DNA from: Bacillota bacterium
GTDB lineage: Bacteria > Bacillota > JAAYKD01
Length of the DNA stretch: 64,000 nt
Direction: 5' to 3'
NCBI GenBank assembly: GCA_012522585.1
Contig: JAAYKD010000069.1
Span: 1,602-65,601, forward strand
This document shows, piece by piece, positions 1 through 52,640 of this stretch. Below the pieces are notes generated by a model. It was not told the origin of the DNA, ran no database searches, and saw only the letters and a list, made by a program, of their open reading frames with translations. The stretch's first letter is position 1, and every line of letters begins with the position of its first letter. The translations under genes were made by a program, and so were the position numbers.

Positions 1-689
1 TTCAGATGATAACGCCTCTTCTAGGCAAATATATCTATCCCGGATCCGAAGGCAAAGAGCTAGCAGTCTTACGCTATGGCACCGTCGTTTCCAATGCCGG
101 CTATTTGGGTAACCCCATGGCTCTGGCTCTTTATGGCAGTCAAGGTCTGCTCTATGCCTCTATATTTTTAATTCCTCAACGAATTGTTGTCTGGTCTCTG
201 GGGGTCTCCTATTTCACCGGCAATAGGGGCAAGAAGATGTTCAAGCAGATCCTCTTTCACCCCTGCATTTTAGCGGTCATTGTCGGCCTTGTTTTGATGC
301 TGGCCCAGATTAAACTCCCCAGTGCTTTGGTCAAGGTTCTGCAACATGGAAGCAATAGTGTCACCCCTATTTCCATGGTCTTGATCGGCAACCTTCTAGC
401 CGATATTTCCTTTAAATCCTTGATCAACAAAACTATCCTCTGGTATACAACTGTTCGCCTCATTTTGATTCCGGCAGCCGTCTTAGCAATTTGTTCTGCT
501 TTGAATTTACCCACCATGGTCACAGTCATCTCAACTCTATTGGTAGCCATGCCAGCCGGAGCGACAACTGCTATTTTAGCAGCCCAACATGATGGCGATG
601 ATGTGCTAGCAGCTAAAATAGTCTTCTTTACTACATTTTTATCCTTGATCACTGTGCCCATCTTCATCTTAATCATGAACAAACTTTAA
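1..689 (+). CDS. AEC (auxin efflux carrier/malate permease) family membrane transporter, C-terminal part (5' end lies upstream of window)
   Basis: Hydrophobic multi-TM translation (..GNPMALALYGSQGLLYASIFLIPQRIVVWSLG.., ..VAMPAGATTAILAAQHDGD..) typical of AEC permeases. The ORF runs to the window edge. Confidence 0.6.
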   Translation, partial: QMITPLLGKYIYPGSEGKELAVLRYGTVVSNAGYLGNPMALALYGSQGLLYASIFLIPQRIVVWSLGVSYFTGNRGKKMFKQILFHPCILAVIVGLVLMLAQIKLPSALVKVLQHGSNSVTPISMVLIGNLLADISFKSLINKTILWYTTVRLILIPAAVLAICSALNLPTMVTVISTLLVAMPAGATTAILAAQHDGDDVLAAKIVFFTTFLSLITVPIFILIMNKL

Positions 690-792
690 TCACGATGGCG
701 ACGATGTGCCAGCAGCTAAGATAGTCTTCTTTACTACCTTCTTATCCTTGATTACTATGCCCATCTTCATCTTAATCATGAACAAGCTTTAG
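588..792 (+). repeat. Two tandem copies (about 100 bp each, about 90% identical) of the 3'-terminal coding segment of the AEC transporter. Copy 2 (691-792) lies immediately after the stop codon and keeps its own stop.
   Basis: Direct comparison of 588-689 with 691-792 (cacgatggcgacgatgtgccagcagctaag...catcttaatcatgaacaagctttag). Confidence 0.85.
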
Positions 793-1422: not shown

Positions 1423-2820
1423 ATGCAAAATGAATTCGATCTTGCGGTAATTGGTGCAGGGCCTGGGGGCTATGTAGCTGCCATTAGAGGAGCTCAGTCA
1501 GGCATGAAGGTTGCACTCATTGAAGAAAGAGAAATTGGTGGCACTTGTTTAAACAGAGGATGCGTTCCCACCAAAGCGCTGATGCATTCCGCCAATCTTT
1601 ACCGCCAAATTAGCCGTAGCGATCTCTTCGGTATTGAAGCCACAGACCTAAAATACGATATGGAAAAAATCTATTCACGAAAAGACGAGGTTGTATCAAA
1701 GTTACGCAGTGGAGTTGAGTTTCTCATATCAGCTAATCAAATTGAAATCATCAGAAGCAGAGGCCTGGTTACAGACCAAAACACAATAAAAACAAAGGAC
1801 AGAGAGATTAAAGCTAAGAATATACTCATTGCCACCGGTTCCTCTCCTGCTCGACCTCCTATTCCGGGCTTGGATTTACCAGGGGTCATGACCAGCGATG
1901 AATTACTGAATCAGCAGCAAGGACCCGGCTGCCAAAGTCTCATCATCATCGGCGGAGGCGTTATAGGCATGGAATTCGCCGGAATATTTTCATCTTTCGG
2001 TTGCAAAGTCACCGTCATTGAGGCGATGGACCGTATTTTGTCAACCATGGATAGAGAAATCGCTCAAAATTTGAGTATGATCATGAGGAGGCGGGGTGTA
2101 ACTATAAATACGAGGGCAAGGGTAAACAAAATCGAGCAAACAGAAGAGGGCTTGATCTGCCATTATACCCAAAAAGAAACCTCTAAAGTTGCTGAAGCAC
2201 AAGCAGTGCTCGTGGCCATCGGGCGAAAACCAAATGTTGATGGATTATTCTCAGAAAACCTCAATATAAAGACTGAACGGGGAATCGTTGTTAACGAGCA
2301 TTTCCAAACCAACATCCCTGGTATCTATGCCATTGGAGATGTTATTTCTGATGGCATCCAGCTGGCTCATCTGGCTTCAGCACAAGGAATAACCGCTGTA
2401 TCTCATATGATAGGCAATCCTTCCCCCGTCGACCTCAACACAATACCCTCCTGCATCTACACTGAACCGGAAATTGCCTCTGTGGGTCTTTCTGCAGACC
2501 AAGCCAAGGCCCAAGGGCTTTCAATTAAAACAGGGAAATTCCCTATGTCGGGCAATGCAAAATCAATCATCGAAGATGAAGACCGAGGTTTTATCAAACT
2601 AGTCTTTGATAGTGAAACAGAGGTAATCCTCGGTGCACAAATGATGTGCGGCAGAGCTACCGATTTAATCAGCGAAATGTCAACAGCCATCGTCGCCAAG
2701 CTTACCTTGGCCGACCTAGGCTCCGTGATTCGACCTCATCCCACCTTTATCGAAGGGATCAGCGAAGCCTTAGATGGCACTCATGGCAAAGCCATTCATA
2801 TTGCACCTAGAAACCGCTAA
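1423..2820 (+). CDS. lpdA: Dihydrolipoyl dehydrogenase (E3/L-protein)
   Basis: FAD-binding GAGPGGYVAA, redox-disulfide CLNRGCVPTK, NAD site GGGVIGMEFAG, and a C-terminal dimerisation HPT motif. RBS AAGGAG upstream. Confidence 0.93.
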   Translation: MQNEFDLAVIGAGPGGYVAAIRGAQSGMKVALIEEREIGGTCLNRGCVPTKALMHSANLYRQISRSDLFGIEATDLKYDMEKIYSRKDEVVSKLRSGVEFLISANQIEIIRSRGLVTDQNTIKTKDREIKAKNILIATGSSPARPPIPGLDLPGVMTSDELLNQQQGPGCQSLIIIGGGVIGMEFAGIFSSFGCKVTVIEAMDRILSTMDREIAQNLSMIMRRRGVTINTRARVNKIEQTEEGLICHYTQKETSKVAEAQAVLVAIGRKPNVDGLFSENLNIKTERGIVVNEHFQTNIPGIYAIGDVISDGIQLAHLASAQGITAVSHMIGNPSPVDLNTIPSCIYTEPEIASVGLSADQAKAQGLSIKTGKFPMSGNAKSIIEDEDRGFIKLVFDSETEVILGAQMMCGRATDLISEMSTAIVAKLTLADLGSVIRPHPTFIEGISEALDGTHGKAIHIAPRNR

Positions 2821-2863: not shown

Positions 2864-2875
2864 TAGAAACTCTAA

Positions 2876-3005
2876 CAATTGTAATTTCTTACCTTAAATT
2901 TTCCCGACAAAAATTTTCTGTTTAATCCTCTTGGGCTGTTCTTGCAAGGATTTTCTCTTGATCATATTTATCCAAATTGACCCAATAATCGCTGAAAACT
3001 CTAAA
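2876..3005. repeat. Degenerate (about 70% identical) duplicate of the 3' end plus 3' flank of the glycyl-radical enzyme gene (authentic copy about 3006-3135)
   Basis: 2880-2996 aligns with 3010-3130 (..cccgacaaaaattttctgtttaatcctcttgggctgttcttgc..atttatccaaattgacccaataatcgctg.. against ..cccagccaaaaaatcgctgtttattcttcttgagcagttcgagc..atttatccaaattaacgaaataatcgctg..). Confidence 0.7.
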
Positions 3006-3046
3006 TTATCTTTTTCTCTTAATATTCCCAGCCAAAAAATCGCTGT

Positions 3047-5398
3047 TTATTCTTCTTGAGCAGTTCGAGCGATGATCTCCTCTTGATGGTATTTATCCAA
3101 ATTAACGAAATAATCGCTGTAACCGGCTACTCTGACTAAAAGATCTTTATATTCGGCTGGGTTCTGCTGGGCTTTTCTCAGTGTCTCAGTGTCCACCACA
3201 TTGAATTGGATGTGGTGACCGCCTAAACGAAAATAGGTTCTAATCAAGGCAGCCAATTTTTTCAAACCCTGCTCCCCTGCTAGAGTCGAAGGCATGAAGC
3301 GTTGATTGAGCAAGGTGCCTCCGGAGTAACTTTGATCCATTTTAGCCAAGGATTTAATCACTGCTGTGGGACCATTGCGATCAGCGCCGTGAGAAGGTGA
3401 AGTCCCATCTGATTCCGGCAGATGAGCCAAACGACCATTGGCGCTTGCTCCCAGCATTTTGCCAAAATAAACATGACAGGTTGTGGAGAGCATATTCAGA
3501 TGATAGGTGGGCCCTTTAGTGCTATGGCGCCCTTCAATATTATCTAAAAGGGATTGATAGACCCTTTGCATAATTTTATCGGCCCGATCATCATCGTTGC
3601 CATAGAAGGGTGTCTGATTGAGCAATTTTTGTCGCAGCGGCTCATGACCTTGGAAATTATCACTCAAGGCTTGTAGCAATTGCTCCAGCGGGACAGTCTT
3701 TTCATCATAGACATGGGTCTTGATAGCTGAAAGGCTGTCCGTCACCGTTCCTATACCGCAGCATTGAATATAGGTCGTATTATATTTAGGACCTCCGTCG
3801 TAGTAATCTTTGCCACTTTCAATACAGCCTTCGATGACCACGGAGAGGAAAGGAGCCGGAGCATATTTTCTGAACATATGTTCTAAATAGTTGTTGACTC
3901 TGATCTTGGTGTCGACGACGAAACTCAATTGCTTTTGGAAAGCTGCGTAGAGATCATCGAAACTTTCAAAATCTCGGCCCGTGCTCAAGCCGATTTTTTT
4001 ACCGCTCAAGGGGTCAACTCCATCGTTTAAAGTCAATTCCAAAACTTTAGGCACGTTGAGATAGCCGGTCAACAAATAGGCTTCCTTGCCGAAACAGCCT
4101 GTCTCGATACAGCCACTGTTTCCCCCTTCTCTGGCATCCTCAACGCTTTTGCCTGAGCGTACCTGTTCCATGATGACCATATCCGTATTGAAAACGGAAG
4201 GATAACCATAGCCCTTGCGGATAATGGCAGCTGCTTCTAGGAGGAATTTTTCCGGAGTTTTTGCGCTGATCTGAACATTACACTGAGGCTGCAATAAGTG
4301 AAGCTCATCGAAAACTTCCAACAAGAGATATGAGACTTCACTGACTCCATCACTGCCATCTCTTTGCAGGCCACCAATATTGATATTGACGAAATCATTA
4401 TAGGTTCCGCTTTCCAAGGCGGTCACACCGACTTTGGGTGGGGCCGGATGGTTGTTGAATTTTATCCATAAACAGCTCAAGAGCTCCTTAGCTTGATTTC
4501 TGGTCAAGGTGTTGGCAGCCAGTTCTCTAAAATAAAAGGGTGCTAAATGCTGATCTAAATGACCTGGGCTCATAGAATCCCAGCCGTTCAATTCCATGAT
4601 GGTGCCTAAATGGACAAACCAGTACATTTGAAGAGCATCATGAAAACTCTGGGGAGCTTGAGCCGGAATGCGGCGACAGCGCTCAGCTATATCCAACAAT
4701 TCGGCTTTACGCTCAGGGTTATCTTCCTCTTGGGCCAATGCTTGGGCTTTTTCAGCATGTCTTTGACCATAGCGAATCAGTGCCTGAGCGGAAATCATCA
4801 TAGCTTTATATTGCTCATTTTTATTGCCCGCTTCAGGGTCCTTGAGCCAGTCCAATTGGCTTTGCCGTTCTTTTATTTGCTCAATGAAATCGTCCATACC
4901 GTAAAGATAGATTCTACCGTCTAAGGCAGTATGTCCGGGAGCCCTTTGCTCCATAAATTCAGTGAACAAACCTGCTTCGTAGAGGTTCTTCCAAGTATCA
5001 TCGATTTCGGCAAAAGCTTTATCCCGCATACTGCGCCCCCGCCAATAAGGAATCACTTCTTTTTCATAGATCAGCTTATCCTCCGAACTGATCTTGTAGC
5101 CTGCCATCTCCCTCGTATCCAAAACATCTAGATCCTCTAGAGTATGACAAGTCAATTCCGGAAAAGAAGGGACGACTGCGGGAGCATTTCCTCTTTCCCC
5201 TACGATCAATTCCCCTTGACCGATATAGATTTCTTTCTGATCGCAGAAATGATAAAAATTCTTGGCTCGCATGACGGGAACCGAATATTTACCATCATTC
5301 TCTCGATAAAATTCTGTGACCAGCTTGGCCCTTTCCGCACTGAATTTTACAACAGCCTCTCGACTCTCTTGACGCAATCTGGCAACTCGTTCAGTCAT
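3047..5398 (-). CDS. Glycyl-radical enzyme of the PFL2/DhaB-like eliminase family (glycerol dehydratase / HypD / CutC-like). Substrate unassigned.
   Basis: C-terminal glycyl-radical motif RVAGYSDYF. Active-site thiyl-Cys/Glu motif GCIETG. WFVHLGTIMELNGWDSMSPG and FMEQRAPGH blocks resemble C. butyricum glycerol dehydratase. The likely true start is the second ATG (MTERV..), which has AGGAGG 7 nt upstream; the listed ORF begins 6 codons earlier. Confidence 0.85.
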   Translation of the reverse strand: MTERVARLRQESREAVVKFSAERAKLVTEFYRENDGKYSVPVMRAKNFYHFCDQKEIYIGQGELIVGERGNAPAVVPSFPELTCHTLEDLDVLDTREMAGYKISSEDKLIYEKEVIPYWRGRSMRDKAFAEIDDTWKNLYEAGLFTEFMEQRAPGHTALDGRIYLYGMDDFIEQIKERQSQLDWLKDPEAGNKNEQYKAMMISAQALIRYGQRHAEKAQALAQEEDNPERKAELLDIAERCRRIPAQAPQSFHDALQMYWFVHLGTIMELNGWDSMSPGHLDQHLAPFYFRELAANTLTRNQAKELLSCLWIKFNNHPAPPKVGVTALESGTYNDFVNINIGGLQRDGSDGVSEVSYLLLEVFDELHLLQPQCNVQISAKTPEKFLLEAAAIIRKGYGYPSVFNTDMVIMEQVRSGKSVEDAREGGNSGCIETGCFGKEAYLLTGYLNVPKVLELTLNDGVDPLSGKKIGLSTGRDFESFDDLYAAFQKQLSFVVDTKIRVNNYLEHMFRKYAPAPFLSVVIEGCIESGKDYYDGGPKYNTTYIQCCGIGTVTDSLSAIKTHVYDEKTVPLEQLLQALSDNFQGHEPLRQKLLNQTPFYGNDDDRADKIMQRVYQSLLDNIEGRHSTKGPTYHLNMLSTTCHVYFGKMLGASANGRLAHLPESDGTSPSHGADRNGPTAVIKSLAKMDQSYSGGTLLNQRFMPSTLAGEQGLKKLAALIRTYFRLGGHHIQFNVVDTETLRKAQQNPAEYKDLLVRVAGYSDYFVNLDKYHQEEIIARTAQEE

Positions 5399-5412
5399 TT
5401 TATTCCTCCTGA

Positions 5413-6291
5413 TCATTCTATGTTTCTTCGGGCTTCGAGACCACCGGCTCTTAAATAGTCTATGGCTCGGTCCATCTCAGATTCCGTTGGTGTTTCAATA
5501 TGGGGTAATTTATATTCTCGGTTCAATTTTTCATATTTGTTGATCTGCATATGGTGATAGGGCAATAGCTCCAGGGGCCAAGGATTTTCAAACTGCTTAA
5601 AAAAATCGATAATCCTATCGAGATTTTTTTTAGAATCGTTGATTCCCGGTATCAAAGGCATTCGAACAATACCGGCATAACCTGCTCTGATCAAATTGGC
5701 CAAGTTATTTAGAATCAGAGTGTTGTCAACACCTGTATACTTCTCATGTTCTCGGCCAGCCATATGTTTCAAATCGTAGAGAAATAGATCAATATGAGGA
5801 GCCAAGTCTGCTAAGATTGGCCAAGGGCTGTAGCCCGATGTATCCAAAGTTCGATGGATACCCTCCTGGCCTGACAATTTGAGCAACTCCAACAGAAATT
5901 CCGGTTGACTTAAAGGCTCACCACCGGAGAATGTAACTCCGCCACCTGATTCATCATAAAAGAGTCGATCCTTTAAAATGATCTCGTGAACTTCTTGAGC
6001 CCTTTTAGTTTCACCGACCCAAACCCGAGCTTGAGTCAAACAAGCATCAACACAAAGCCCGCAGAGCAAGCAATTTGCACTTTGCTCTAAGCCTTGGGGG
6101 CAAACTTCCAGACAGCGACGACAATCGATACACAGTTCTTCTTGCCAAAGAATCTCTTTAGAAAAACCTTGGCTTTCAGGATTGTGACACCACCAACAAT
6201 TCAAAGGACAGCCTTTGAAAAAAACCGTGGTGCGAATACCCGGACCGTCCTCGATACTGTAGCGCCTAATATTAAAAATGGTACCTTCCAT
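5413..6291 (-). CDS. Glycyl-radical enzyme activating enzyme (radical SAM, with two extra ferredoxin-like Cys clusters)
   Basis: CPLNCWWCHNPE (CX3CX2C) near the N-terminus. CIDCRRCLEVCP and CLLCGLCVDAC clusters. GGEP SAM motif. The stop overlaps the GRE start region. Confidence 0.9.
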   Translation of the reverse strand: MEGTIFNIRRYSIEDGPGIRTTVFFKGCPLNCWWCHNPESQGFSKEILWQEELCIDCRRCLEVCPQGLEQSANCLLCGLCVDACLTQARVWVGETKRAQEVHEIILKDRLFYDESGGGVTFSGGEPLSQPEFLLELLKLSGQEGIHRTLDTSGYSPWPILADLAPHIDLFLYDLKHMAGREHEKYTGVDNTLILNNLANLIRAGYAGIVRMPLIPGINDSKKNLDRIIDFFKQFENPWPLELLPYHHMQINKYEKLNREYKLPHIETPTESEMDRAIDYLRAGGLEARRNIE

Positions 6292-11994: not shown

Positions 11995-12537
11995 ATGAAT
12001 ACTCAGAAGATGTTGCGTTTAAGCCTGGCTTTGAGTTTAGGCCTAAGCTTGCATGTGATTGAAAGGATGCTGCCTTTACCGGCTCTGCCTTTCCCCGGAG
12101 TCAAACTAGGCTTAGCCAATCTGATCAGTTTAGGTGCAATCTTTTGGTTTTCCTATAAGGAAAGCCTTACCTTGATTATTTTGCGCTGTGTCTTAGCTTC
12201 CTTTTTTGGAGGTGGTTTTTCCGCTTTTCTCTACTCGTTGAGCGGCGCCTTTTTCAGCTTCAATCTGATCTGGTTTCTTTCTCATCTCTCTCCTGCCAAT
12301 TTCAGCCTACCAATGATCAGCATGGTCGGGGCAATTGTCCATAATTTCAGCCAAATCATGGTCTCCATCTTTTTAATGGAAACCTTAGGGCTCTTGATCT
12401 ATCTGCCAATTCTGATCATAGCCGGTTCGATCAGCGGCTTAGCCATCGGCCTGACCGGTCTTATCTTAATTCGCAATTTACACAAGAGCGGACTCTTGCC
12501 CCAAATTGAAGAAAGATTACTACCCTTGTTAAGTTAA
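11995..12537 (+). CDS. Gx-transporter family membrane protein (former heptaprenyl diphosphate synthase component I, PF07456)
   Basis: 5-TM hydrophobic protein. N-terminus LSLALSLGLSLHVIERMLPLP.. is typical of the family. Frequently found adjacent to apbE. Confidence 0.6.
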   Translation: MNTQKMLRLSLALSLGLSLHVIERMLPLPALPFPGVKLGLANLISLGAIFWFSYKESLTLIILRCVLASFFGGGFSAFLYSLSGAFFSFNLIWFLSHLSPANFSLPMISMVGAIVHNFSQIMVSIFLMETLGLLIYLPILIIAGSISGLAIGLTGLILIRNLHKSGLLPQIEERLLPLLS

Positions 12538-12920
12538 TGCCAATTCTGATCATAGCCGGTTCGATCAGCGGCTTAGCCATCGGCCCGAGCAGTCTTATCC
12601 TAATTCGCAATTTACATAAGAGCGGACTCTTGCCCCAAATTGAAGAGAGATTACTACCCTTGTTAAGTTAATGCCAATTCTGATCATAGCCGGTTCGATC
12701 AGCGGTTTAGCCATCGGCCTGACCAGACTTATCTTAATTCGCAATTTACATACGAGCGGACTCTTACCCCAAATTGAAGAAAGATTACTACCCTTGTTAA
12801 GTTAATGCCAATTCTGATCATAGCCGGTTCGATCAGCGGTTTAGCCATCGGCCTGACCAGTCTTATCTTAATTCGCAATTTACATACGAGCGGACTCTTA
12901 CCCCAAATTGAAGAGAAAGT
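12405..12920 (+). repeat. Four tandem copies of a 134-bp unit (the last one truncated). Copy 1 is the last 44 codons plus stop of the Gx-transporter gene. Copies 2-4 lie downstream, each retaining the TAA.
   Basis: Unit gccaattctgatcatagccggttcgatcagcgg...cccttgttaagttaat begins at 12405, 12539, 12673 and 12807. A few substitutions distinguish the copies. Confidence 0.9.
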
Positions 12921-13000
12921 AAAACTAGTTTAAAATTAAAAAAAGCCTAAGGTCAAAGAACTCTCATTTTTCCTGAGAAGCTTCTGACCTTAGGCTCTTC

Positions 13001-18483: not shown

Positions 18484-18855
18484 TCTCAATTTGTCAACAA
18501 AATTATTTGTTCTCCTGAGAGCTATCCGACTAACTATAAATGCTTTTCTTAAAAGCATCTAACCAGGAGCAAAATTATATGTTTATTTTTAAAACAGATT
18601 TTTGATAATCCTTAGATGCTAAATGAAATTTAAATTCTCAGACTCAACAATCTATTCTTCTAGAATCTTATCAGACTCACTATCAGTGCTTTCTAAATAC
18701 TTTAAACAAGAAAGGAAAACTACTGCTTCTATTTACTATGCAATTTCTCAATAGTTATTAAGTGTCAACTTAACTTCAGAATTCTCGGAGAGTAGGTTTG
18801 AATTTTTGAAACTGCACTCTCTCGGATAAACTTACGAACCAAATAGAGAAAACCT

Positions 18856-35225: not shown

Positions 35226-36269
35226 TTATTGAACCGAAGCTATAACCTGACTTAAGAAAAACTCCAAGGCCAATCTCCTGTCTCTTTTCCCTGACAGAAT
35301 GGCATCTTCCGTCTCACTCAAAGCAAACAATAAATTGTTCAAAGAGGATGTGGAAAAGACTCTGCTCTGAATAAGGGATTGCTTGACTAGATAGCTGTGT
35401 AGAGAAAGCTTCTTAGCCATAGCAGCCTCAGTCAGGCCTGATTCTCGCAAAACCTTGACTCTGGATAAGCGGCGCAATTGGAAGCGCAAAGCCCCCAAAA
35501 TTCGCATGGGCTCTTGGTTTTGATCTAAAATTTTACTCAGAATCTTCTGGGCTTGTTCATTCTCCTTTTTGGCTATTAAATCAATAATCTCAAAAACATT
35601 GGCTTCAACCCCTTCGGAAAGAAAAGGCAGAGCCTCTGGCAGAGTAATCACTTTGTTTTTAGGAAAATTCAAAGCCAGTTTGCTGATTTCGTTTTGAGCT
35701 ATGCCCAATTGATTATCTGCAATCAGAGCAAGATGAGCAATCAGTCGAAACTCCCCTTTTAATCCTTGAGCCGCCATTATATCTTGAACTGCCCGAGTCA
35801 TATCCTGGCCTTTTAGCTGAGAGCATTGAACATAGGTTCCTATTTCTAAAACCTTGCGGACCAGACGTCGGCGCCTATCCAAATTAGCATAGTCATAGAA
35901 GACTAAGATATGGTCCCTTTGTTCAAACAATTGAAGCCATGTTTCTTCTTGGTCAAGATTGCTCTTACCCTGACTTTGCTGATCATTGTTCTCTTTGCTT
36001 CTACTGCCACTTTTAAATAAGGGTGAGCCTTCTATGAGAATAACTTTTCCCTCACCTAAAAGCCCTAATTGTAGATTAGCCTCAAGCTGAGCCGGAGTTA
36101 AATCTTCTCCATCCAACTTCAGAACATTATAAAGCCGCTCCTCCAAAGGAATTGTTTCCTGTAATGCCTGGATTGCCTGAGAGACTTGCCAAGTATCATC
36201 ACCATAAACAAGATAGAGATTGGAAACCTTTCCCGATTTTATTTGCCTCTGCAATTGCCGAAAATCCAT
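35226..36269 (-). CDS. holA: DNA polymerase III delta subunit
   Basis: Length and domain pattern of HolA. Conserved comEC-holA / rpsT arrangement as in Bacillus. Confidence 0.8.
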   Translation of the reverse strand: MDFRQLQRQIKSGKVSNLYLVYGDDTWQVSQAIQALQETIPLEERLYNVLKLDGEDLTPAQLEANLQLGLLGEGKVILIEGSPLFKSGSRSKENNDQQSQGKSNLDQEETWLQLFEQRDHILVFYDYANLDRRRRLVRKVLEIGTYVQCSQLKGQDMTRAVQDIMAAQGLKGEFRLIAHLALIADNQLGIAQNEISKLALNFPKNKVITLPEALPFLSEGVEANVFEIIDLIAKKENEQAQKILSKILDQNQEPMRILGALRFQLRRLSRVKVLRESGLTEAAMAKKLSLHSYLVKQSLIQSRVFSTSSLNNLLFALSETEDAILSGKRDRRLALEFFLSQVIASVQ

Positions 36270-36340
36270 AGCCTCACCTACTTTCTTTACTGGTATTCTT
36301 TTTTAAAGCAGCAAATACCTTTTAAATAGCTTTCAAGGTA

Positions 36341-36765
36341 GGCAGGTTCACCAGGTCCAGTAACGGCCATTGCTTTGGCAGATGGTTCCCCTTTGAGCTG
36401 CCCTAGTCAAAACTAGGCTATGGTCAGCAGGTTCGCCAAGTCTAGTAACGGCCATTGCTTTGGCAGATGATTCCCCTTTGAGCTGCCCTAGTCAAAGCTA
36501 GGCTATGGTCAGCAAGTTCGCCAAGTCCAGTAGCGACCGTTGCTTTGGCAAATGATTCCCCTTTGAGCTGCCCCAGTCAAAGCTAGGCCATGGTCAACAG
36601 GTTCGCCAAGTCCAGTAACGGCCATTGCTTTGGCAGATGATACCTCCTTTGAGCTGCCCTAGTCAAAACTAGGCTACGGTAAACAGGTTCGCCAAGTCCA
36701 GTAACGGCCATTGCTTTGGCAGATGATACCTCCTTGGGCAGCCGTAGTCAAAACTATGCTATTGT
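36341..36765. repeat. About five tandem copies of an approximately 85-bp unit. The last copy supplies the final roughly 20 codons and stop of comEC.
   Basis: Unit ggtcagcaggttcgccaagtccagtaacggccattgctttggcagatgattcccctttgagctgccctagtcaaagctaggctat recurs at about 36343, 36428, 36513, 36598 and 36684 with point differences. Each unit contains the small hairpin CTAGTCAAAACTAG. Confidence 0.9.
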
Positions 36766-39022
36766 GCCTTTTTAAAATTTCCAATGTGGAATCGGCCGGA
36801 TGATTATATCGGTTGTTAACAGCGACGGAGATGATGGAGATCTCCGGTGTAATTTTACCGAGAAATTCAGGGCTGCAAGAACTGGCTCCCCCGTGATGGG
36901 AAACTTTAAAGAGGGTTTGGGCTTCTATAGCTCTGATTTTTGGCAAAAGGGCGAATTCCCCTTCCCTTTCCAGATCTCCAGCAAGCCACAAATCCGTTCC
37001 TTGATAGACTAGATGGATAACTAAAGAGTCATCATTGCCTCCATCTTTAAAAACCTGAGATTGCACTACTTCGATGCTAACATCCTTGTCTAAAACTATT
37101 TGATCCCCTTCAAACAAGAGGATCTTTTGGCTTTCCGGCTGTTGGCTCAGCCAATCGGTCAATTCTGCAGGTAAATTCGTTAAATCTGCCAGGCCGTGTA
37201 AAAACTTTTTGTAAGGAAGTTTATCTCCCACTTGAATTAAGCCTTGAAAATGGTCTGAGTGGCCATGACTCAATAACAGAACATCCAGACTATTCAATCC
37301 CAATCTTTTCAAATAGGGAAGCACCGTCTTCTTTCCAATTTCACTGCTGCCAGTACCCGAGCCTCCTCCATCCACTAGGATGGTTTTTCCATTGGGCAAA
37401 CGCAAAAAAATACAATCACCTTGGCCAACATCGATCATATGAACTTCCAATTTATAGGGCCAAGGATGCCAACAGAGCAGGGCTAAAATGAGAAGGAAAG
37501 ACAGAGCTGTTTTTTTAACCAGGCTTTTATACTTAGGTAAAATCCCTGAGCTCAGGAAAAACAAGAAGATATAGGCCAAGTAGACGACTGACAAGCTGGG
37601 TTTGGGTAAATATAATGAAGACATAGGCAAGGAAGCAAAGAGACTTCCCGTTTTGATCAACAGCCAAGCATAGGCTTCGGCCAATCCGTAGAGCCAAAAG
37701 AACAAAGAGCTAAAAGGGATGCTCAACCATAATAAAAGCAATAAAGGCATGGCGGGAATGATCAAAGGAGTAAAAACTAAATTGCTCAAAGGAGCGATTA
37801 AAGACACTTCCTGAAAATAATAGAGACTTAGTGGAAGGACACCGATTTGAGCTGCCAGAGTGGCAGCCATAGGAAAGATCAAAAAATCAGCTAACTTCAA
37901 TCGCTTTTTTAAAGCTGTGGAAATAGGTCTGGTGAAAACAAAAAGACCCCAGACTGCACATAAGGAAAGGAGAAAACCCGTTTCAAAGAGTAAATTAGGC
38001 CAAAGCGGCAGGAGAATCAAAAGCATCAAGGCTAATATTGTAGACCAATGGGTTCGCCTCAAGATTATTTTAGCTGAGAAAACGATGATGGCCATGATTC
38101 CGGCTCGAACAACCGAAGGTTCCAATTCTGTCAAGAGCATAAAAAACATTATTAAGGCCAGATAGAGAAAATATTCCGACTTTCTACTTAAAAGAAGTCT
38201 GTTTAAAAACAAGCCCAACCCCACAATGAAAAAAGCGACATTGCCCCCGGAGACTGCCAGAAGATGCAGAAGACCTGCCTTTTGAAAATTTTCAATTAAG
38301 TCTTCGGCCAAATCATCTGCCACCCCAAATGACAAGCTCATCAAAAGAGAAGCGGTCTCCTCTTGCAGCTTAGGGTTTCCATCTTGCCCCTTAGAGTAAA
38401 GAGCCATGTAGAGATTTCTTCTCAATTTCCAGATAGATGCTAGAGGGTCGGTCAAGGTTGGCCCTCCCAAGGTTTTTCCCTCCTGAGCAAAAAAGCGAGC
38501 CACAATATTCTTTCTTTTCTGAATTAAATCCCAATTGGGATCTCCGAAATTTACTCTGCCCCCCTGCAGTCCCAAGCTACCCTTAAGCCAGATAAAGGTG
38601 CCTGGAGGATATAGTTGATCTTCCTTGTTCTCCAGATAGACATCGACTTTACCACCCTGAGAGTGCCAAGAATTTTCCTTTAAAATAGAAAACTCCTCTA
38701 ACTGAAAGCGCCATCTGTTTTGATTGTCCTTAAAAGGAAAGCCGCTGACCCGTCCTTGAATTTCTATTGTTTGATCCGTAGGGATTGAATCCAACCTTTT
38801 CGCTTTTTTAAATTCATGGAGGGAATAAATGGAATAGCCTAAAATCATGAAAACTAAGAAAATTGCTACTGTCTTTCTATCTCTATAGAGAGCCAAGATA
38901 ATTAAGAGAAAAGATAGAACTATCAAAAAAGGCAAATAGGAGAAACCGTATCTTTGCTCTCCTAAAGCAATTCCCAAAGCCATAGCCGCAGCTGCGACTA
39001 TGGGCTTTTTAATTCTTTTCAT
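36674..39022 (-). CDS. comEC: DNA internalisation competence protein ComEC/Rec2 (with C-terminal metallo-beta-lactamase domain)
   Basis: Multi-TM competence domain. MBL motif HGHSDH. 782 aa. The C-terminal tail is encoded inside the tandem repeat. Confidence 0.92.
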   Translation of the reverse strand: MKRIKKPIVAAAAMALGIALGEQRYGFSYLPFLIVLSFLLIILALYRDRKTVAIFLVFMILGYSIYSLHEFKKAKRLDSIPTDQTIEIQGRVSGFPFKDNQNRWRFQLEEFSILKENSWHSQGGKVDVYLENKEDQLYPPGTFIWLKGSLGLQGGRVNFGDPNWDLIQKRKNIVARFFAQEGKTLGGPTLTDPLASIWKLRRNLYMALYSKGQDGNPKLQEETASLLMSLSFGVADDLAEDLIENFQKAGLLHLLAVSGGNVAFFIVGLGLFLNRLLLSRKSEYFLYLALIMFFMLLTELEPSVVRAGIMAIIVFSAKIILRRTHWSTILALMLLILLPLWPNLLFETGFLLSLCAVWGLFVFTRPISTALKKRLKLADFLIFPMAATLAAQIGVLPLSLYYFQEVSLIAPLSNLVFTPLIIPAMPLLLLLWLSIPFSSLFFWLYGLAEAYAWLLIKTGSLFASLPMSSLYLPKPSLSVVYLAYIFLFFLSSGILPKYKSLVKKTALSFLLILALLCWHPWPYKLEVHMIDVGQGDCIFLRLPNGKTILVDGGGSGTGSSEIGKKTVLPYLKRLGLNSLDVLLLSHGHSDHFQGLIQVGDKLPYKKFLHGLADLTNLPAELTDWLSQQPESQKILLFEGDQIVLDKDVSIEVVQSQVFKDGGNDDSLVIHLVYQGTDLWLAGDLEREGEFALLPKIRAIEAQTLFKVSHHGGASSCSPEFLGKITPEISIISVAVNNRYNHPADSTLEILKRHNSIVLTTAAQGGIICQSNGRYWTWRTCLP

Positions 39023-39621
39023 CTGACTTTAATCTGATCTTTAATGGCGGAGAAGATGCCTTCAGCTATGCCGGGAACATTCATCAAATCCTCAATGGCC
39101 TGAAATTTGCCCTGTTTATCCCGATAGTTGATGATGGCTCGAGCTCTGGTTTCACCGATTTGACTGAGAGTCATCAATTGGCTTAGATCTGCCTGATTGA
39201 TATCCACCTTGCCATCGTCTAGATTGACTACAGTCAAGTCGTCTTCTGTGTAACTGGGCACATAATAACGACAGCCATCCTGCAAAACCATGGCTAAATT
39301 CAACCTGTCTAAATCTGCGTCCTCTTTAGCTCCTCCAACTGAAATCAGGGCTTCTCCCAGGCGCAATTCCTTCTTTATTCTGACCAGGCCAGGCTTTAAA
39401 ACGGCTCCGGCTATATGAACCACAATCTCCTCTTCACTCTCTTGCACCACTTCTTTTAATTCACCGCTTGTTTGCTCATTGACTAATTGAATTTGACCTT
39501 CTGCGGGAATTATATTAAAGCTCTGCTCCTTTTTCTGCCATTGCCAAAATCCAAAGCTGCATATGAAAATACCCAAACCCAAGCCTAGGCAAAGGTAATG
39601 AAGATTAGTCATTTTTTTCAT
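39019..39621 (-). CDS. comEA: Competence protein ComEA (SLBB + helix-hairpin-helix DNA-binding domains)
   Basis: N-terminal TM segment, SLBB domain (VHIAGAVLKPGLVRI), and a C-terminal HhH pair (INQADLSQLMTLSQIGETRARAII). Confidence 0.9.
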   Translation of the reverse strand: MKKMTNLHYLCLGLGLGIFICSFGFWQWQKKEQSFNIIPAEGQIQLVNEQTSGELKEVVQESEEEIVVHIAGAVLKPGLVRIKKELRLGEALISVGGAKEDADLDRLNLAMVLQDGCRYYVPSYTEDDLTVVNLDDGKVDINQADLSQLMTLSQIGETRARAIINYRDKQGKFQAIEDLMNVPGIAEGIFSAIKDQIKVR

Positions 39622-49607: not shown

Positions 49608-52600
49608 ATGGAACCGATTTATATCATTATCTCTATCGTTTTAGCAGCTCTCGTTCTTCTCGGCATCAAACTCATGAGTTCTCCCAAAACAGCCGTCCAA
49701 GGTAATTTAATCAGCGCCTTCAGTATGTTGGCGGCAGTAATTTTGGTGCTTTGGACTAACAATATTTTAAGTCTCCCTCTATTGTGGGCAGCAATAGCCA
49801 TCGGAAGTATAATCGGCTATGTTCTGGGTATGAAAGTCACCATGATTCAAATGCCTCAGGTTGTTGCTCTTTTAAACGGATTGGGAGGCGGAGCTTCCCT
49901 TTTAGTTGCAGCAGCTGAAATTCTCAGCAACTTTAATCAAATGGACGCTTTTAGTAAAGTGAGCGGTCAATTGGCTTTAATCGTCGGTGGTATCACCCTC
50001 TCAGGCAGCATGATTGCAGCAGCCAAGTTGGACAGAAGGATGAGTCAACGTCCCGTAGTCCTCAAAGGCCACAATATTTTAGCCAACGGTAGTTTGGTCA
50101 TCATGATTGTTGCCACTTTTCTCACCTTATTGGACAATTCACCTTATATTTTCTTATCCTTCCTGATTTTAATACTATCCCTAGCCTATGGTTATCTTTT
50201 CTCTGTCCGAGTAGGCGGAGCTGATATGCCTATCACCATCAGTTTGTTAAACTCCTTTTCCGGATTAGCAGGAGCAATAGTTGGTTTTACCATAGGTGAG
50301 CCACTTTTGGTTGCAGTCGGTGCCATTGTCGGAGCCTCGGGTCTGATTTTGACTCAAATCATGTGTAAAGCCATGAATCGCTCCTTAGGCAGTGTCTTAA
50401 GCGGAGGCACCTCCAAACCGAGTAGCAAACCCAAGGTCGTGCCTGCGAAAGTGGAAGAGCCCGTTTTAACAGAGCCCATAAAAGAAGAAGTTGCTAAAAG
50501 TTTAGGGGATTTATTAAAAGAAGCCCAACGAGTCATCATCATACCAGGCTATGGCATGGCCTTGGCTCAGGCTCAAAATGAAGTAAAAGCCCTGACCGAT
50601 GCACTCATCGCCCAGGGTAAACAGGTAGAATTCGCTATACACCCCGTAGCCGGACGGATGCCCGGACATATGAATGTCCTTTTAGCAGAGGTTGATGTTC
50701 CCTACGAATTGATGCGAGAGATGGACGATATCAATCCTCTCTTTGCCGAAACGGATGTAGCCATCGTGGTTGGATCTTGTGACGTTGTCAATCCAGCCGC
50801 CAACACAGCCGAAGATACCCCCATCTACGGAATGCCTGTTCTTTCCGTAGAAAACGCCAAACATGTAATCGTTTGCAATTTAGATACAAACCCTGGCTAT
50901 TCTGGCGTAGACAATCCTCTCTATGAGATGGAACATGTCAGACTCCTTTTGGGAGATGCCAAAGCAACTCTCAAGCAATTACTGGCTGAATTTAAAGAGG
51001 AAAAGAAATCTGAGCCCCAGGAGATCGAAGAAGAAAAAACTCCAAGCTCTCCTTCCTATTTAGAACTATTGCACCAAGGAGAAAAAGTTATCTTCGTTCC
51101 CGGATACGGTATGGCCTTAGCCCAAGCCCAATCATTGGTCAAACAGTTGGCTGATGCTTTGGAAGAAAAAGGCAAAGAGGTCAAATTTGCCATCCACCCT
51201 GTAGCCGGACGAATGCCCGGTCACATGAATGTGCTCTTAGCAGAAACGGATGTGCCTTACGATAAACTTTGGGAAATGGACGATATCAATCCTCTCTTCC
51301 CGGAAACCGATATAGTCATCATCGTTGGTGCCAATGACGTAGTCAACCCGGCAGCCAACACTGCAGAAGACACACCCATCTACGGTATGCCCGTCTTATC
51401 AGTTGAAAATGCCAAACATGTAATTGTCTGTAACTTAGATAAAAGCCCTGGCTATTCCGGCGTAGATAATCCTTTATACGAAATGGATAATGTGACTCTG
51501 CTTTTAGGCGACGCTAAAGAGAGCCTGACTCAACTGATCGACCAGTTTAAACAAGGACCTATAGCCAAAGAGCCGGAGCCTCTAGCTCAAGGAACAGACA
51601 CTCTAACCACTGTTCTGGCTAAACCTGAAAGAGTCATCATCGTGCCTGGATATGGCATGGCTTTAGCCCAAGCTCAAACCCAGGTCAAGGAGATTTATGA
51701 AACCTTGGAGGCCAAGGGAACAGAAGTGGAATTTGCCATTCACCCAGTGGCAGGACGGATGCCCGGACATATGAATGTGCTCTTAGCAGAAGTCGATATT
51801 CCTTATGAAAAATTGAGAGAAATGGATGATATCAACCCTCTCTTCCCGGAAACAGATCTGGTCATCATTGTGGGCGCCAATGACGTAGTCAACCCGGCAG
51901 CCAACACAGCTGAGGACACACCCATTTACGGCATGCCCATTCTCAATGTAGATCAAGCTAAGCATATTGTGGTTTGCAATTTGGATCAAAGCCCAGGTTA
52001 TTCCGGTGTGGATAACCCCCTATACGAGATGGACAATGTCACTCTTTTGTTGGGCGATGCCAAGGACAGCCTGAATAAAATACTGGATATCTTCAAGGCA
52101 GAACCCTCAGCAGCCCCAGAAGCAGAACCAACTTCAGTAGCTCAAACTTCAGTCTTAGCCGCAGCTAAAAAGGTCATCATCGTACCAGGCTATGGCATGG
52201 CTTTAGCTCAGGCTCAAACTCTAGTCAAAAGTGTTTACGATGCCCTAGAAGCCAAGGGTGCAGAGGTGGAATTCGCCATCCACCCGGTGGCAGGACGCAT
52301 GCACGGCCACATGAACGTTCTCTTAGCAGAAGTCGATGTTCCTTACGAAAAACTGAGAGAGATGGACGATATCAACCCTCTCTTCCCGGAAACCGACGTG
52401 GTCATCGTAGTGGGCGCCAATGACGTAGTCAACCCGGCGGCCAATACAGCCGAGGACACACCTATTTATGGGATGCCCATCTTAAATGTAGACCAAGCCA
52501 AACACATCATAGTCTGCAACTTGGATAGGAGCCCAGGTTATTCCGGCGTAGACAACCCCCTATACGATATGGAGAATGTGACTTTGCTTCTAGGTGATGC

Positions 52601-52640
52601 CAAAGCATCTTTAGAAATCCTTCTCGAAGAATTGAAATAA
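49608..52640 (+). CDS. pntB: NAD(P) transhydrogenase subunit beta carrying four tandem dIII (NADP(H)-binding) domains (1010 aa)
   Basis: Residues 1 to about 290 form the multi-TM dII domain. They are followed by four repeats of about 180 aa, each with PGYGMALAQAQ, AIHPVAGRMPGHMNVLLAE, GANDVVNPAANTAEDTPIYGMP and NPLYEM. Confidence 0.9.
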   Translation: MEPIYIIISIVLAALVLLGIKLMSSPKTAVQGNLISAFSMLAAVILVLWTNNILSLPLLWAAIAIGSIIGYVLGMKVTMIQMPQVVALLNGLGGGASLLVAAAEILSNFNQMDAFSKVSGQLALIVGGITLSGSMIAAAKLDRRMSQRPVVLKGHNILANGSLVIMIVATFLTLLDNSPYIFLSFLILILSLAYGYLFSVRVGGADMPITISLLNSFSGLAGAIVGFTIGEPLLVAVGAIVGASGLILTQIMCKAMNRSLGSVLSGGTSKPSSKPKVVPAKVEEPVLTEPIKEEVAKSLGDLLKEAQRVIIIPGYGMALAQAQNEVKALTDALIAQGKQVEFAIHPVAGRMPGHMNVLLAEVDVPYELMREMDDINPLFAETDVAIVVGSCDVVNPAANTAEDTPIYGMPVLSVENAKHVIVCNLDTNPGYSGVDNPLYEMEHVRLLLGDAKATLKQLLAEFKEEKKSEPQEIEEEKTPSSPSYLELLHQGEKVIFVPGYGMALAQAQSLVKQLADALEEKGKEVKFAIHPVAGRMPGHMNVLLAETDVPYDKLWEMDDINPLFPETDIVIIVGANDVVNPAANTAEDTPIYGMPVLSVENAKHVIVCNLDKSPGYSGVDNPLYEMDNVTLLLGDAKESLTQLIDQFKQGPIAKEPEPLAQGTDTLTTVLAKPERVIIVPGYGMALAQAQTQVKEIYETLEAKGTEVEFAIHPVAGRMPGHMNVLLAEVDIPYEKLREMDDINPLFPETDLVIIVGANDVVNPAANTAEDTPIYGMPILNVDQAKHIVVCNLDQSPGYSGVDNPLYEMDNVTLLLGDAKDSLNKILDIFKAEPSAAPEAEPTSVAQTSVLAAAKKVIIVPGYGMALAQAQTLVKSVYDALEAKGAEVEFAIHPVAGRMHGHMNVLLAEVDVPYEKLREMDDINPLFPETDVVIVVGANDVVNPAANTAEDTPIYGMPILNVDQAKHIIVCNLDRSPGYSGVDNPLYDMENVTLLLGDAKASLEILLEELK
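50526..52640 (+). repeat. Intragenic tandem repeat: four units of about 540-560 bp (starts about 50526, 51084, 51630, 52170), each encoding one dIII domain
   Basis: Self-alignment of the pntB sequence. Copies differ mainly at third-codon positions. Confidence 0.9.

Follow-up and report, generated by a model that had tools for sequence, protein, structure and literature searches.

A tandem array at the 3′ end of comEC in an uncultured Bacillota bacterium, most likely a near-neutral minisatellite built from the gene's own last codons

Tandem units at the edges of bacterial genes are known from several systems. MIRU are tandem units of 46–101 bp located where one gene of an operon gives way to the next; they overlap the upstream gene's stop codon, and their copy number varies. 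Promoter tandem repeats (PTRs) have been described in Mycobacterium tuberculosis at dop, lpdA and cysG, where copy-variable tandem units, from ~57 bp upward, sit immediately upstream of a gene (PMC12817950), and promoter VNTRs of the same species have been proposed to tune expression of the gene downstream (PMC12817950). In the literature that we searched, we found no description of gene-tail minisatellites of the kind reported here.

Here we analyze a tandem array at the 3′ end of comEC, contained in a 64-kb stretch of DNA (64,000 nucleotides; hereafter, the window). The host is an uncultured Bacillota from anaerobic digesters (protein NLN83404.1, from a ‘Firmicutes bacterium’ MAG). We read the array as a locus-specific minisatellite, or VNTR, derived from the comEC 3′ end and most likely close to neutral, and we assign this reading a probability of roughly 0.8. 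In itself, the comEC array is an ordinary VNTR, and it is notable mainly for three further duplicated 3′ ends nearby.

Anatomy of the comEC array

The comEC gene (36674..39022, minus strand) is an ORF of 782 aa with DUF4131 (PF13567), Competence (PF03772) and metallo-beta-lactamase (PF00753) domains, matched in that order. Residues 221–764 score 210.2 bits against the TIGR00361 ComEC_Rec2 equivalog model (cutoff 190.05), which places the protein in the ComEC/Rec2 family, and the comEA–comEC–holA synteny required of that family is present. Specifically, comEA (39019..39621, minus strand) neighbors comEC on one side, and holA, encoding the DNA polymerase III delta subunit (35226..36269, minus strand; TIGR01128, 184 bits, above cutoff), is the next gene downstream, followed by rpsT, a TetR regulator gene and lepA; with comEA, these are the immediate gene neighbors of the array. 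Beyond the Pfam metallo-beta-lactamase match, ComEC ends in a conserved terminal segment, GGIICQSNGRYWTWRTCLP, hereafter the tail.

TRF detects a repeat at 36342–36762 with a period of 85, 4.9 copies, 89% matches and a score of 658, and a repeat search gives start-to-start unit spacings of 85, 85, 86 and 85. A 28-nt core of the unit matches four times at ≤3 mismatches, against 0.00 expected in 100 dinucleotide shuffles. Once the unit boundaries are refined on the minus strand, with the single-copy allele of strain L003 (see below) as a guide, the whole array extends over 36337–36762 and comprises five head-to-tail units of 85, 86, 85, 85 and 85 bp, pairwise 80–93% identical. The locus thus has the properties of a minisatellite (abutting head-to-tail units, at least three copies, beyond chance by TRF and by the shuffles). 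It is not a CRISPR array, because the units abut without a spacer, each starting one unit length after the last.

A sequence-only reading of this DNA had described about five tandem 85-bp repeats with comEC ending inside them, had assigned the last codons of the gene to the terminal repeat copy, and had placed further copies, with in-frame stops of their own, downstream of the gene. TRF, the position of the stop codon and the translations bear out this description in each respect. Unit 1 (u1; 36762..36678, 85 nt, minus strand, as for all units) is the copy that is expressed, and it supplies the 28 terminal codons of ComEC, through base 2 of the final Pro codon; its 5′ half shows no difference from the single-copy allele. 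Unit 2 (u2; 36677..36592, 86 nt) begins with four bases, G-TAG, that finish the Pro codon and provide the comEC stop (TAG, 36676..36674), so the gene ends at the u1/u2 junction, within the first bases of u2. This unit is a hybrid, its 5′ part being of the type found in the downstream units and its 3′ part identical to that of u1. Unit 3 (u3; 36591..36507, 85 nt) has L003-like synonymous variants (GGT CGC, ACT TGC) in its 3′ half, unit 4 (u4; 36506..36422, 85 nt) an in-frame TGG>TAG change, and unit 5 (u5; 36421..36337, 85 nt) a CGA>TGA change.

Unit 5 runs into the native flank, where the end of the ancestral comEC frame and the native spacer occupy 36270..36336 (minus strand). This segment holds the last base of the Pro codon, which completes a relic ending in TCLP, then the original, now relic, TGA stop (36335..36333), and finally the native 63-nt comEC–holA spacer (36332..36270), which bears a ribosome-binding site, AGGTGAGG, and is the same stretch as in L003.

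When translated, each unit yields the ComEC tail again, in one or another of the three minus-strand frames (e.g., SLVLTRAAQRGIICQSNGRYWTWRTC and LALTGAAQRGIICQSNGRYWTWRTC, each followed by a stop), and the array is therefore comEC coding sequence copied downstream. The downstream units carry in-frame stops, with nonsense changes in u4 and u5, and TGA replaces TTA at the u2/u3, u3/u4 and u4/u5 junctions. A block of changes relative to u1 is common to u2–u5.

The single-copy sequence of L003 reads ..AAAAGGCAC/ATAGCATAGTTTTGAC...GAACTTGCTTACC/TTGAAAGC.., where slashes mark the limits of the duplicated segment. The 85 bp that were duplicated run from ATAGC.. to ..TTACC, that is, from base 2 of an Asn codon (..HNSIV..) to base 2 of the last Pro codon, and end before the native TGA stop. 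Since the next unit opens with (A/G)TAG, Pro-stop is restored at the junction, with no change to ComEC: between u1 and u2 the sequence TTA CC/G TAG specifies Leu-Pro-stop, and the exact RTCLP ending of the protein is retained. Microhomology at the breakpoints amounts to only 2–3 nt at most.

The sequence-only reading had also stressed a short hairpin in each unit. The hairpin, CCTAG-N6-CTAGG with a 5-bp stem, is real and weak: it is perfect in u2 and u5, one or two bases off in u3 and u4 (that of u4 includes a single G-U pair), and imperfect in u1 and in the ancestral single copy. Two changes of the block common to u2–u5 make the palindrome perfect. Folding z-scores lie between 0 and +1.7 for single units and at −0.29 for the whole array, with no excess over shuffles, and the emphasis placed on the hairpin is thus unsupported by any thermodynamic or covariance signal. 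An Rfam search of the array gave no match at the gathering score or at E≤1, and a scan for intrinsic terminators found no terminator-like site within it. Given these results, we reject a structured RNA, a riboswitch or a terminator as the function of the array.

Source of the unit and variation among strains

Whether the ComEC C-terminus had been remodelled by the repeat or was its source had been posed as an alternative. Aligned to orthologues, the ComEC C-terminus shows homology through the whole tail, to the last residue: a homologous tail (..GAIACRSHGRIWQIQTCRP, then stop) is found in ComEC orthologues at 29–49% identity over the terminal ~50 residues. Most orthologues end at the same position or a few residues away, and several at exactly the same position; for example, one tail reads ..ITAVQGAIACRSHGRIWQIQTCRP before its stop and that of the window ComEC ..LTTAAQGGIICQSNGRYWTWRTCLP. 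Moreover, L003, a strain 98% identical to the window, has one copy with the same RTCLP ending, a TGA stop and a 63-nt spacer to holA. Because orthologues carry the homologous tail and single-copy L003 ends in the same residues, comEC is the source of the repeat; remodelling of the native C-terminus is contradicted by the junction, which regenerates Pro-stop. The distant syntenic loci L017 and L018, with spacers of 60 and 120 nt, have no tandem repeat.

The unit appears to be confined to this locus. We found no other copy in the 64-kb window, no dispersed copy in the related loci searched, no similar DNA in phage and plasmid collections, and no exact match to the unit core in a pattern scan of viral contigs, GTDB genomes and JGI metagenomes. 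A ComEC-based search for related loci in GTDB genomes likewise returned nothing.

Contigs of the same species, 98.0–99.97% identical to the window, differ in array length, as the sequence-only reading had anticipated might be the case. Copy number is 1 in L003, 4 in L001 and 5 in the window, where the flanks are 98.0–99.8% identical, the variation that defines a VNTR, in what are probably all short-read assemblies, with a coverage of only ~3.4x for L003; these numbers could reflect collapse or mis-joining, and strain-specific SNPs argue otherwise. The distance from the comEC stop to holA changes with copy number, from 63 nt in L003 to 319 nt in L001 and 404 nt in the window. In L001, TRF counts 3.9 copies and the window units u3 and u4 are fused, the third unit joining a 5′ half from window u3 to a 3′ half from window u4, with three private differences. 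The L001 array can be viewed as the window array minus a part, and deletion by unequal exchange would produce just such a u3/u4 fusion. The L002 contig breaks inside u2.

At synonymous sites, the window and L003 diverge by 0.068 over six genes and by 0.092 within comEC. We had considered hypermutation of the units and withdrew the idea, since synonymous divergence between strains is already 0.07–0.09; values of 0.068–0.092 accommodate the 7–20% divergence among units and make hypermutation unnecessary. By this comparison, the unit divergence fits neutral decay since about the time of the strain split or from a little before it. Among the 40 substitutions (T>C 10, C>T 7, T>A 6, A>G 5, G>A 4, A>C 3, C>G 3, T>G 2), T/C transitions predominate, and 8 start from A. 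A mutagenic copy like that of a DGR is rejected because the spectrum is not adenine-specific.

In the expressed tail, between window positions 36678–36762 and L003 positions 12261–12345, there are 6 synonymous and 0 non-synonymous differences in 87 nt, for a pS of 0.305, about three times that of the rest of comEC (0.092). Units u1 and u2 have the same 3′ half, and L003-type variants persist in u3. These patterns are most simply read as sequence exchange that involves both the units and the expressed copy, non-synonymous imports being purged by selection; such concerted evolution between the units and u1 would account for the surplus of synonymous change in the expressed tail.

The data thus point to a history that begins with a single copy, the state seen in L003 and in the distant orthologues, after which an 85-bp segment of the comEC end was evidently duplicated in tandem with the ComEC ending kept. 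The first duplication may have occurred by illegitimate recombination or template switching, and later changes in copy number would have followed from RecA-type unequal crossing-over or slippage; the arrays of four and five units that exist, and the u3/u4 fusion in L001, are what unequal exchange would yield. Units would swap sequence among themselves and with the expressed copy, in concerted evolution. The downstream units are decaying pseudo-tails, with stops and amino-acid changes, that are not translated within ComEC. Such an array could persist at the 3′ end of a gene because a duplication there spares the protein, where an out-of-frame intragenic one would destroy the gene. Its sole physical consequence would be the expansion of the comEC–holA spacer from 63 to 319 or 404 nt. 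A sigma-70-like motif directed at holA in each unit counts against neutrality of the array (see below).

Three further duplicated gene ends in the window

Self-comparison of the window, together with TRF, reveals additional duplications of gene tails. At 588..791 (plus strand), the last 103 bp of an AEC/Mem_trans transporter gene, stop included, are present in two copies with a period of 103; the ORF ends at 689. Codon position 3 accounts for 8 of the 10 sites at which the copies differ (P = 0.0034), with TAA>TAG included. The same duplication occurs in L014–L016, L019 and L020, and it is identical in contigs from five other assemblies. At 2867..3122 (minus strand), two copies with a period of 129 and ~75% identity involve the tail of the gene for HypD, a glycyl-radical enzyme (trans-4-hydroxy-L-proline dehydratase; ORF 3047..5416, minus strand, NF043068). 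Here the duplicated part combines ~75 nt from the very end of the gene with ~55 nt from its 3′ flank, and the downstream copy still has an open, tail-like frame with its own stop (VFSDYWVNLDKYDQEKILARTAQED, then stop). This copy adjoins a bidirectional terminator held in common with the dihydrolipoyl dehydrogenase gene at 1423..2820. At 12404..12939 (plus strand), four copies of the last 134 bp of a gene for a PF07456 (Hpre_diP_synt_I) membrane protein (ORF 11995..12537) each comprise 44 codons and the stop; the last unit has 13 nt of filler in place of 24 nt, and gene callers annotate the extra copies as ORFs of 42–44 aa. The PF07456 tail is single-copy in L004 (from the same sample as L003), L011 and L012.

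Both the comEC and the PF07456 arrays are polymorphic between strains that are 98% identical. A strain that otherwise resembles L003 shares the AEC and HypD duplications, which are therefore older and probably fixed.

Other features of the window deserve mention in their own right. A tandem glycine riboswitch with two aptamers (882–1097; 58.9 and 40.5 bits) is placed between a strong TTGACA-17-TATAAT promoter, upstream, and the dihydrolipoyl dehydrogenase gene (1423..2820), downstream. Directly downstream of the stop of a serine dehydratase alpha gene (18856, minus strand) lies a 288-bp AT-rich insertion (18562–18849) that is absent from L004, L008 and L009, which belong to the other strain group; it was considered as a diverged tail copy and set aside, having no similarity to anything else in the window. 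The pntB gene (49608–52640) encodes a 1010-aa protein in which a normal membrane domain precedes four dIII (NADP-binding) domains in tandem, all intact, each of 185 aa and ~74% identical at the nucleotide level. Long PntB homologues of ~830–1230 aa are widespread in anaerobes (Porphyromonas, Dysgonomonas, Desulfovibrio, Alkalicella and Bacillota MAGs), where they are annotated simply as PntB; their size would be compatible with three to five dIII domains. We thus rejected the 555-bp pntB repeats as a fifth recent case, multi-dIII PntB being an old and widespread architecture.

Measured from the end of the stop codon, unit boundaries in the four gene-tail arrays lie at −4, 0, +7 and +55 nt. Because they differ in this way, we reject a rule by which duplications would break at the stop codon, and the mechanism is not tied to that codon. 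In a simulation, duplications of 85–134 bp were placed at random on the gene map of the window; 29–42% of the tolerated ones would straddle only a 3′ end, and the chance that all four would do so was P about 0.007–0.03 (n = 4). Four 3′-end duplications in 64 kb exceed what a simple tolerance filter predicts, an excess that is suggestive but not compelling, as there are four cases, 5′ duplications may be selected against, and intergenic duplicates decay more quickly and are more difficult to detect.

The differences between copies fall at codon positions 1, 2 and 3 in the numbers 1, 1 and 8 for AEC, 4, 3 and 10 for HypD, 2, 3 and 5 for PF07456, and about 7, 6 and 13 for comEC. Pooled over the four arrays, 36 of 63 differences (57%) are at position 3, far above one third and marginally above the ~47% expected from a constrained expressed copy and free additional copies (estimated P about 0.07). 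Import of the copies as foreign alleles, a possibility raised by the position-3 bias, was judged unnecessary, since constraint on the expressed copy alone predicts about 47%.

Three parallel gene-tail duplications hint at a propensity of the lineage. It is conceivable, and in our estimation improbable, that this lineage has an active process that preferentially duplicates the last ~85–135 bp of genes and lets the resulting pseudo-tails feed back into the expressed ends. Fork stalling or template switching at transcription-termination regions would be one candidate, given the terminator hairpins next to two of the four arrays; another would be a route by way of RNA or cDNA. If such a process existed, the array at comEC would be no isolated accident and would stem from a duplication mechanism that acts genome-wide and specifically on 3′ ends.

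Alternative explanations and comparison with known systems

The array could also be a promoter tandem repeat, in which the comEC 3′ end holds the holA promoter and duplication multiplies that promoter, tuning holA by copy number. Units u1 and u2 contain TTGACT-17-TATCAT (10/12 consensus) and u3 and u4 contain TTGACT-17-AATCAT (9/12), all directed toward holA. This putative sigma-70-like motif is also present in the single-copy allele of L003; comEC and holA have no intervening terminator, and array copy number differs between strains. In Bacillus subtilis the comE operons are competence-regulated and holA is essential, a disparity given which holA may need a promoter of its own. However, the motif is a consensus match only, and none occurs at the equivalent place in the distant syntenic loci L017 and L018. 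In u5, the unit nearest holA, the −10 hexamer is degraded to AACCAT, and the best promoter-like matches sit 320–400 nt upstream of holA. Furthermore, each of the three remaining duplications either faces a convergent gene or precedes a separate strong promoter, so promoter dosage cannot be a general cause. On balance, we consider promoter tuning unlikely.

A second alternative would make the downstream units a reservoir of silent cassettes that donate to the expressed ComEC tail by gene conversion, diversifying it in the manner of pilE/pilS. The threefold synonymous divergence of the expressed tail, the identical 3′ halves of u1 and u2, and the L003-type variants kept in u3 can all be accommodated in this way, as can the variants common to PF07456 array units and the single-copy alleles of other strains. 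Yet all changes that reached the expressed copy are synonymous and so create no protein diversity, the would-be donors carry stops, and the ComEC tail is conserved, with nothing to hint at a variable surface. Exchange between repeats, for its part, is expected in any minisatellite and needs no function. We regard a cassette reservoir as very improbable.

Fainter still is the prospect that the array is an artefact, whether of a strain mixture or of repeat collapse or expansion in short-read metagenome assembly. Contigs L002 (12349–12413) and L005 (10386–10665) do end inside the comEC and PF07456 arrays, two partial ComEC proteins (P0123 and P0124) are cut off in the tail, where their contigs probably end, and coverage of the single-copy contigs is low. 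Nevertheless, the same junctions and unit order recur in independent assemblies, made from different samples with different assemblers (a MEGAHIT k127 contig in ERZ941572, the JGI sample 3300038805 and the window), and the PF07456 array is base-for-base identical in four independent assemblies. Unit differences of 7–20% hinder collapse, the single-copy contigs bear consistent SNPs of their own, and three samples agree at the PF07456 locus.

Finally, insertion of a dispersed or mobile element (REP/BIME, MITE or MIRU-like), or of a structured-RNA or terminator array, in place of the native comEC C-terminus is already refuted for practical purposes: each unit does have a short palindrome, and the array lies, as do those of MIRU, at a gene boundary, but the tail is native, the single-copy allele holding the full unit sequence as ordinary coding DNA, the unit has no further copies in the window or the collections searched, and the Rfam, folding and terminator tests are null.

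Understood as a near-neutral minisatellite, the comEC array alone matters little: ComEC is unchanged, and the array is a convenient strain marker and breaks metagenome contigs. It does offer a worked example of how a tandem duplication that straddles a stop codon is silent when its junction rebuilds the terminal codon and the stop, and of how pseudo-tails can raise synonymous divergence in the end of an expressed gene. What stands out is the density, with four independent 3′-end duplications of different ages, two of them polymorphic, in 64 kb. Were this confirmed genome-wide, it would amount to an unusual, lineage-specific propensity for 3′-biased duplication, of relevance to mutational mechanisms and to the birth of C-termini.

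Among known systems, the DGR pair of variable and template repeats (VR/TR) resembles the comEC locus in having a near-copy of the 3′-terminal ~100 bp of a gene just downstream of it. The comEC array differs in its four or five abutting copies, as opposed to one template repeat, in the invariance of the ComEC tail protein, and in substitutions that are not adenine-specific. Like the PTRs of M. tuberculosis, the comEC array consists of copy-variable tandem units immediately upstream of a gene, here holA, at which a promoter-like hexamer pair in the unit is aimed; unlike theirs, its promoter is only putative, and the motif degrades in the units closest to holA and lacks conservation among relatives. 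With MIRU, the array shares tandem, copy-variable units at a gene boundary, over the stop of the upstream gene. MIRU, however, are one family spread over dozens of loci, whereas each array here derives from the adjacent gene, and no second locus with the comEC unit was found in the 64 kb, in related loci or in public collections, as a dispersed repeat of the MIRU, REP/BIME or MITE kind would require.

The closest likeness is to the VNTRs of the ETR/QUB type used in MLVA typing, which have head-to-tail units of tens of bp, a locus-specific sequence and strain-variable copy numbers (here 1, 4 and 5). As in bacterial minisatellites generally, units fuse by unequal exchange and a dedicated enzyme is unnecessary. 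Three features set the comEC array apart from known VNTRs: its unit is the gene's own last 28 codons, with a junction that recreates the stop and leaves the protein untouched; its units are unusually diverged (80–93% identity); and three further arrays of the same kind lie within the same 64 kb.
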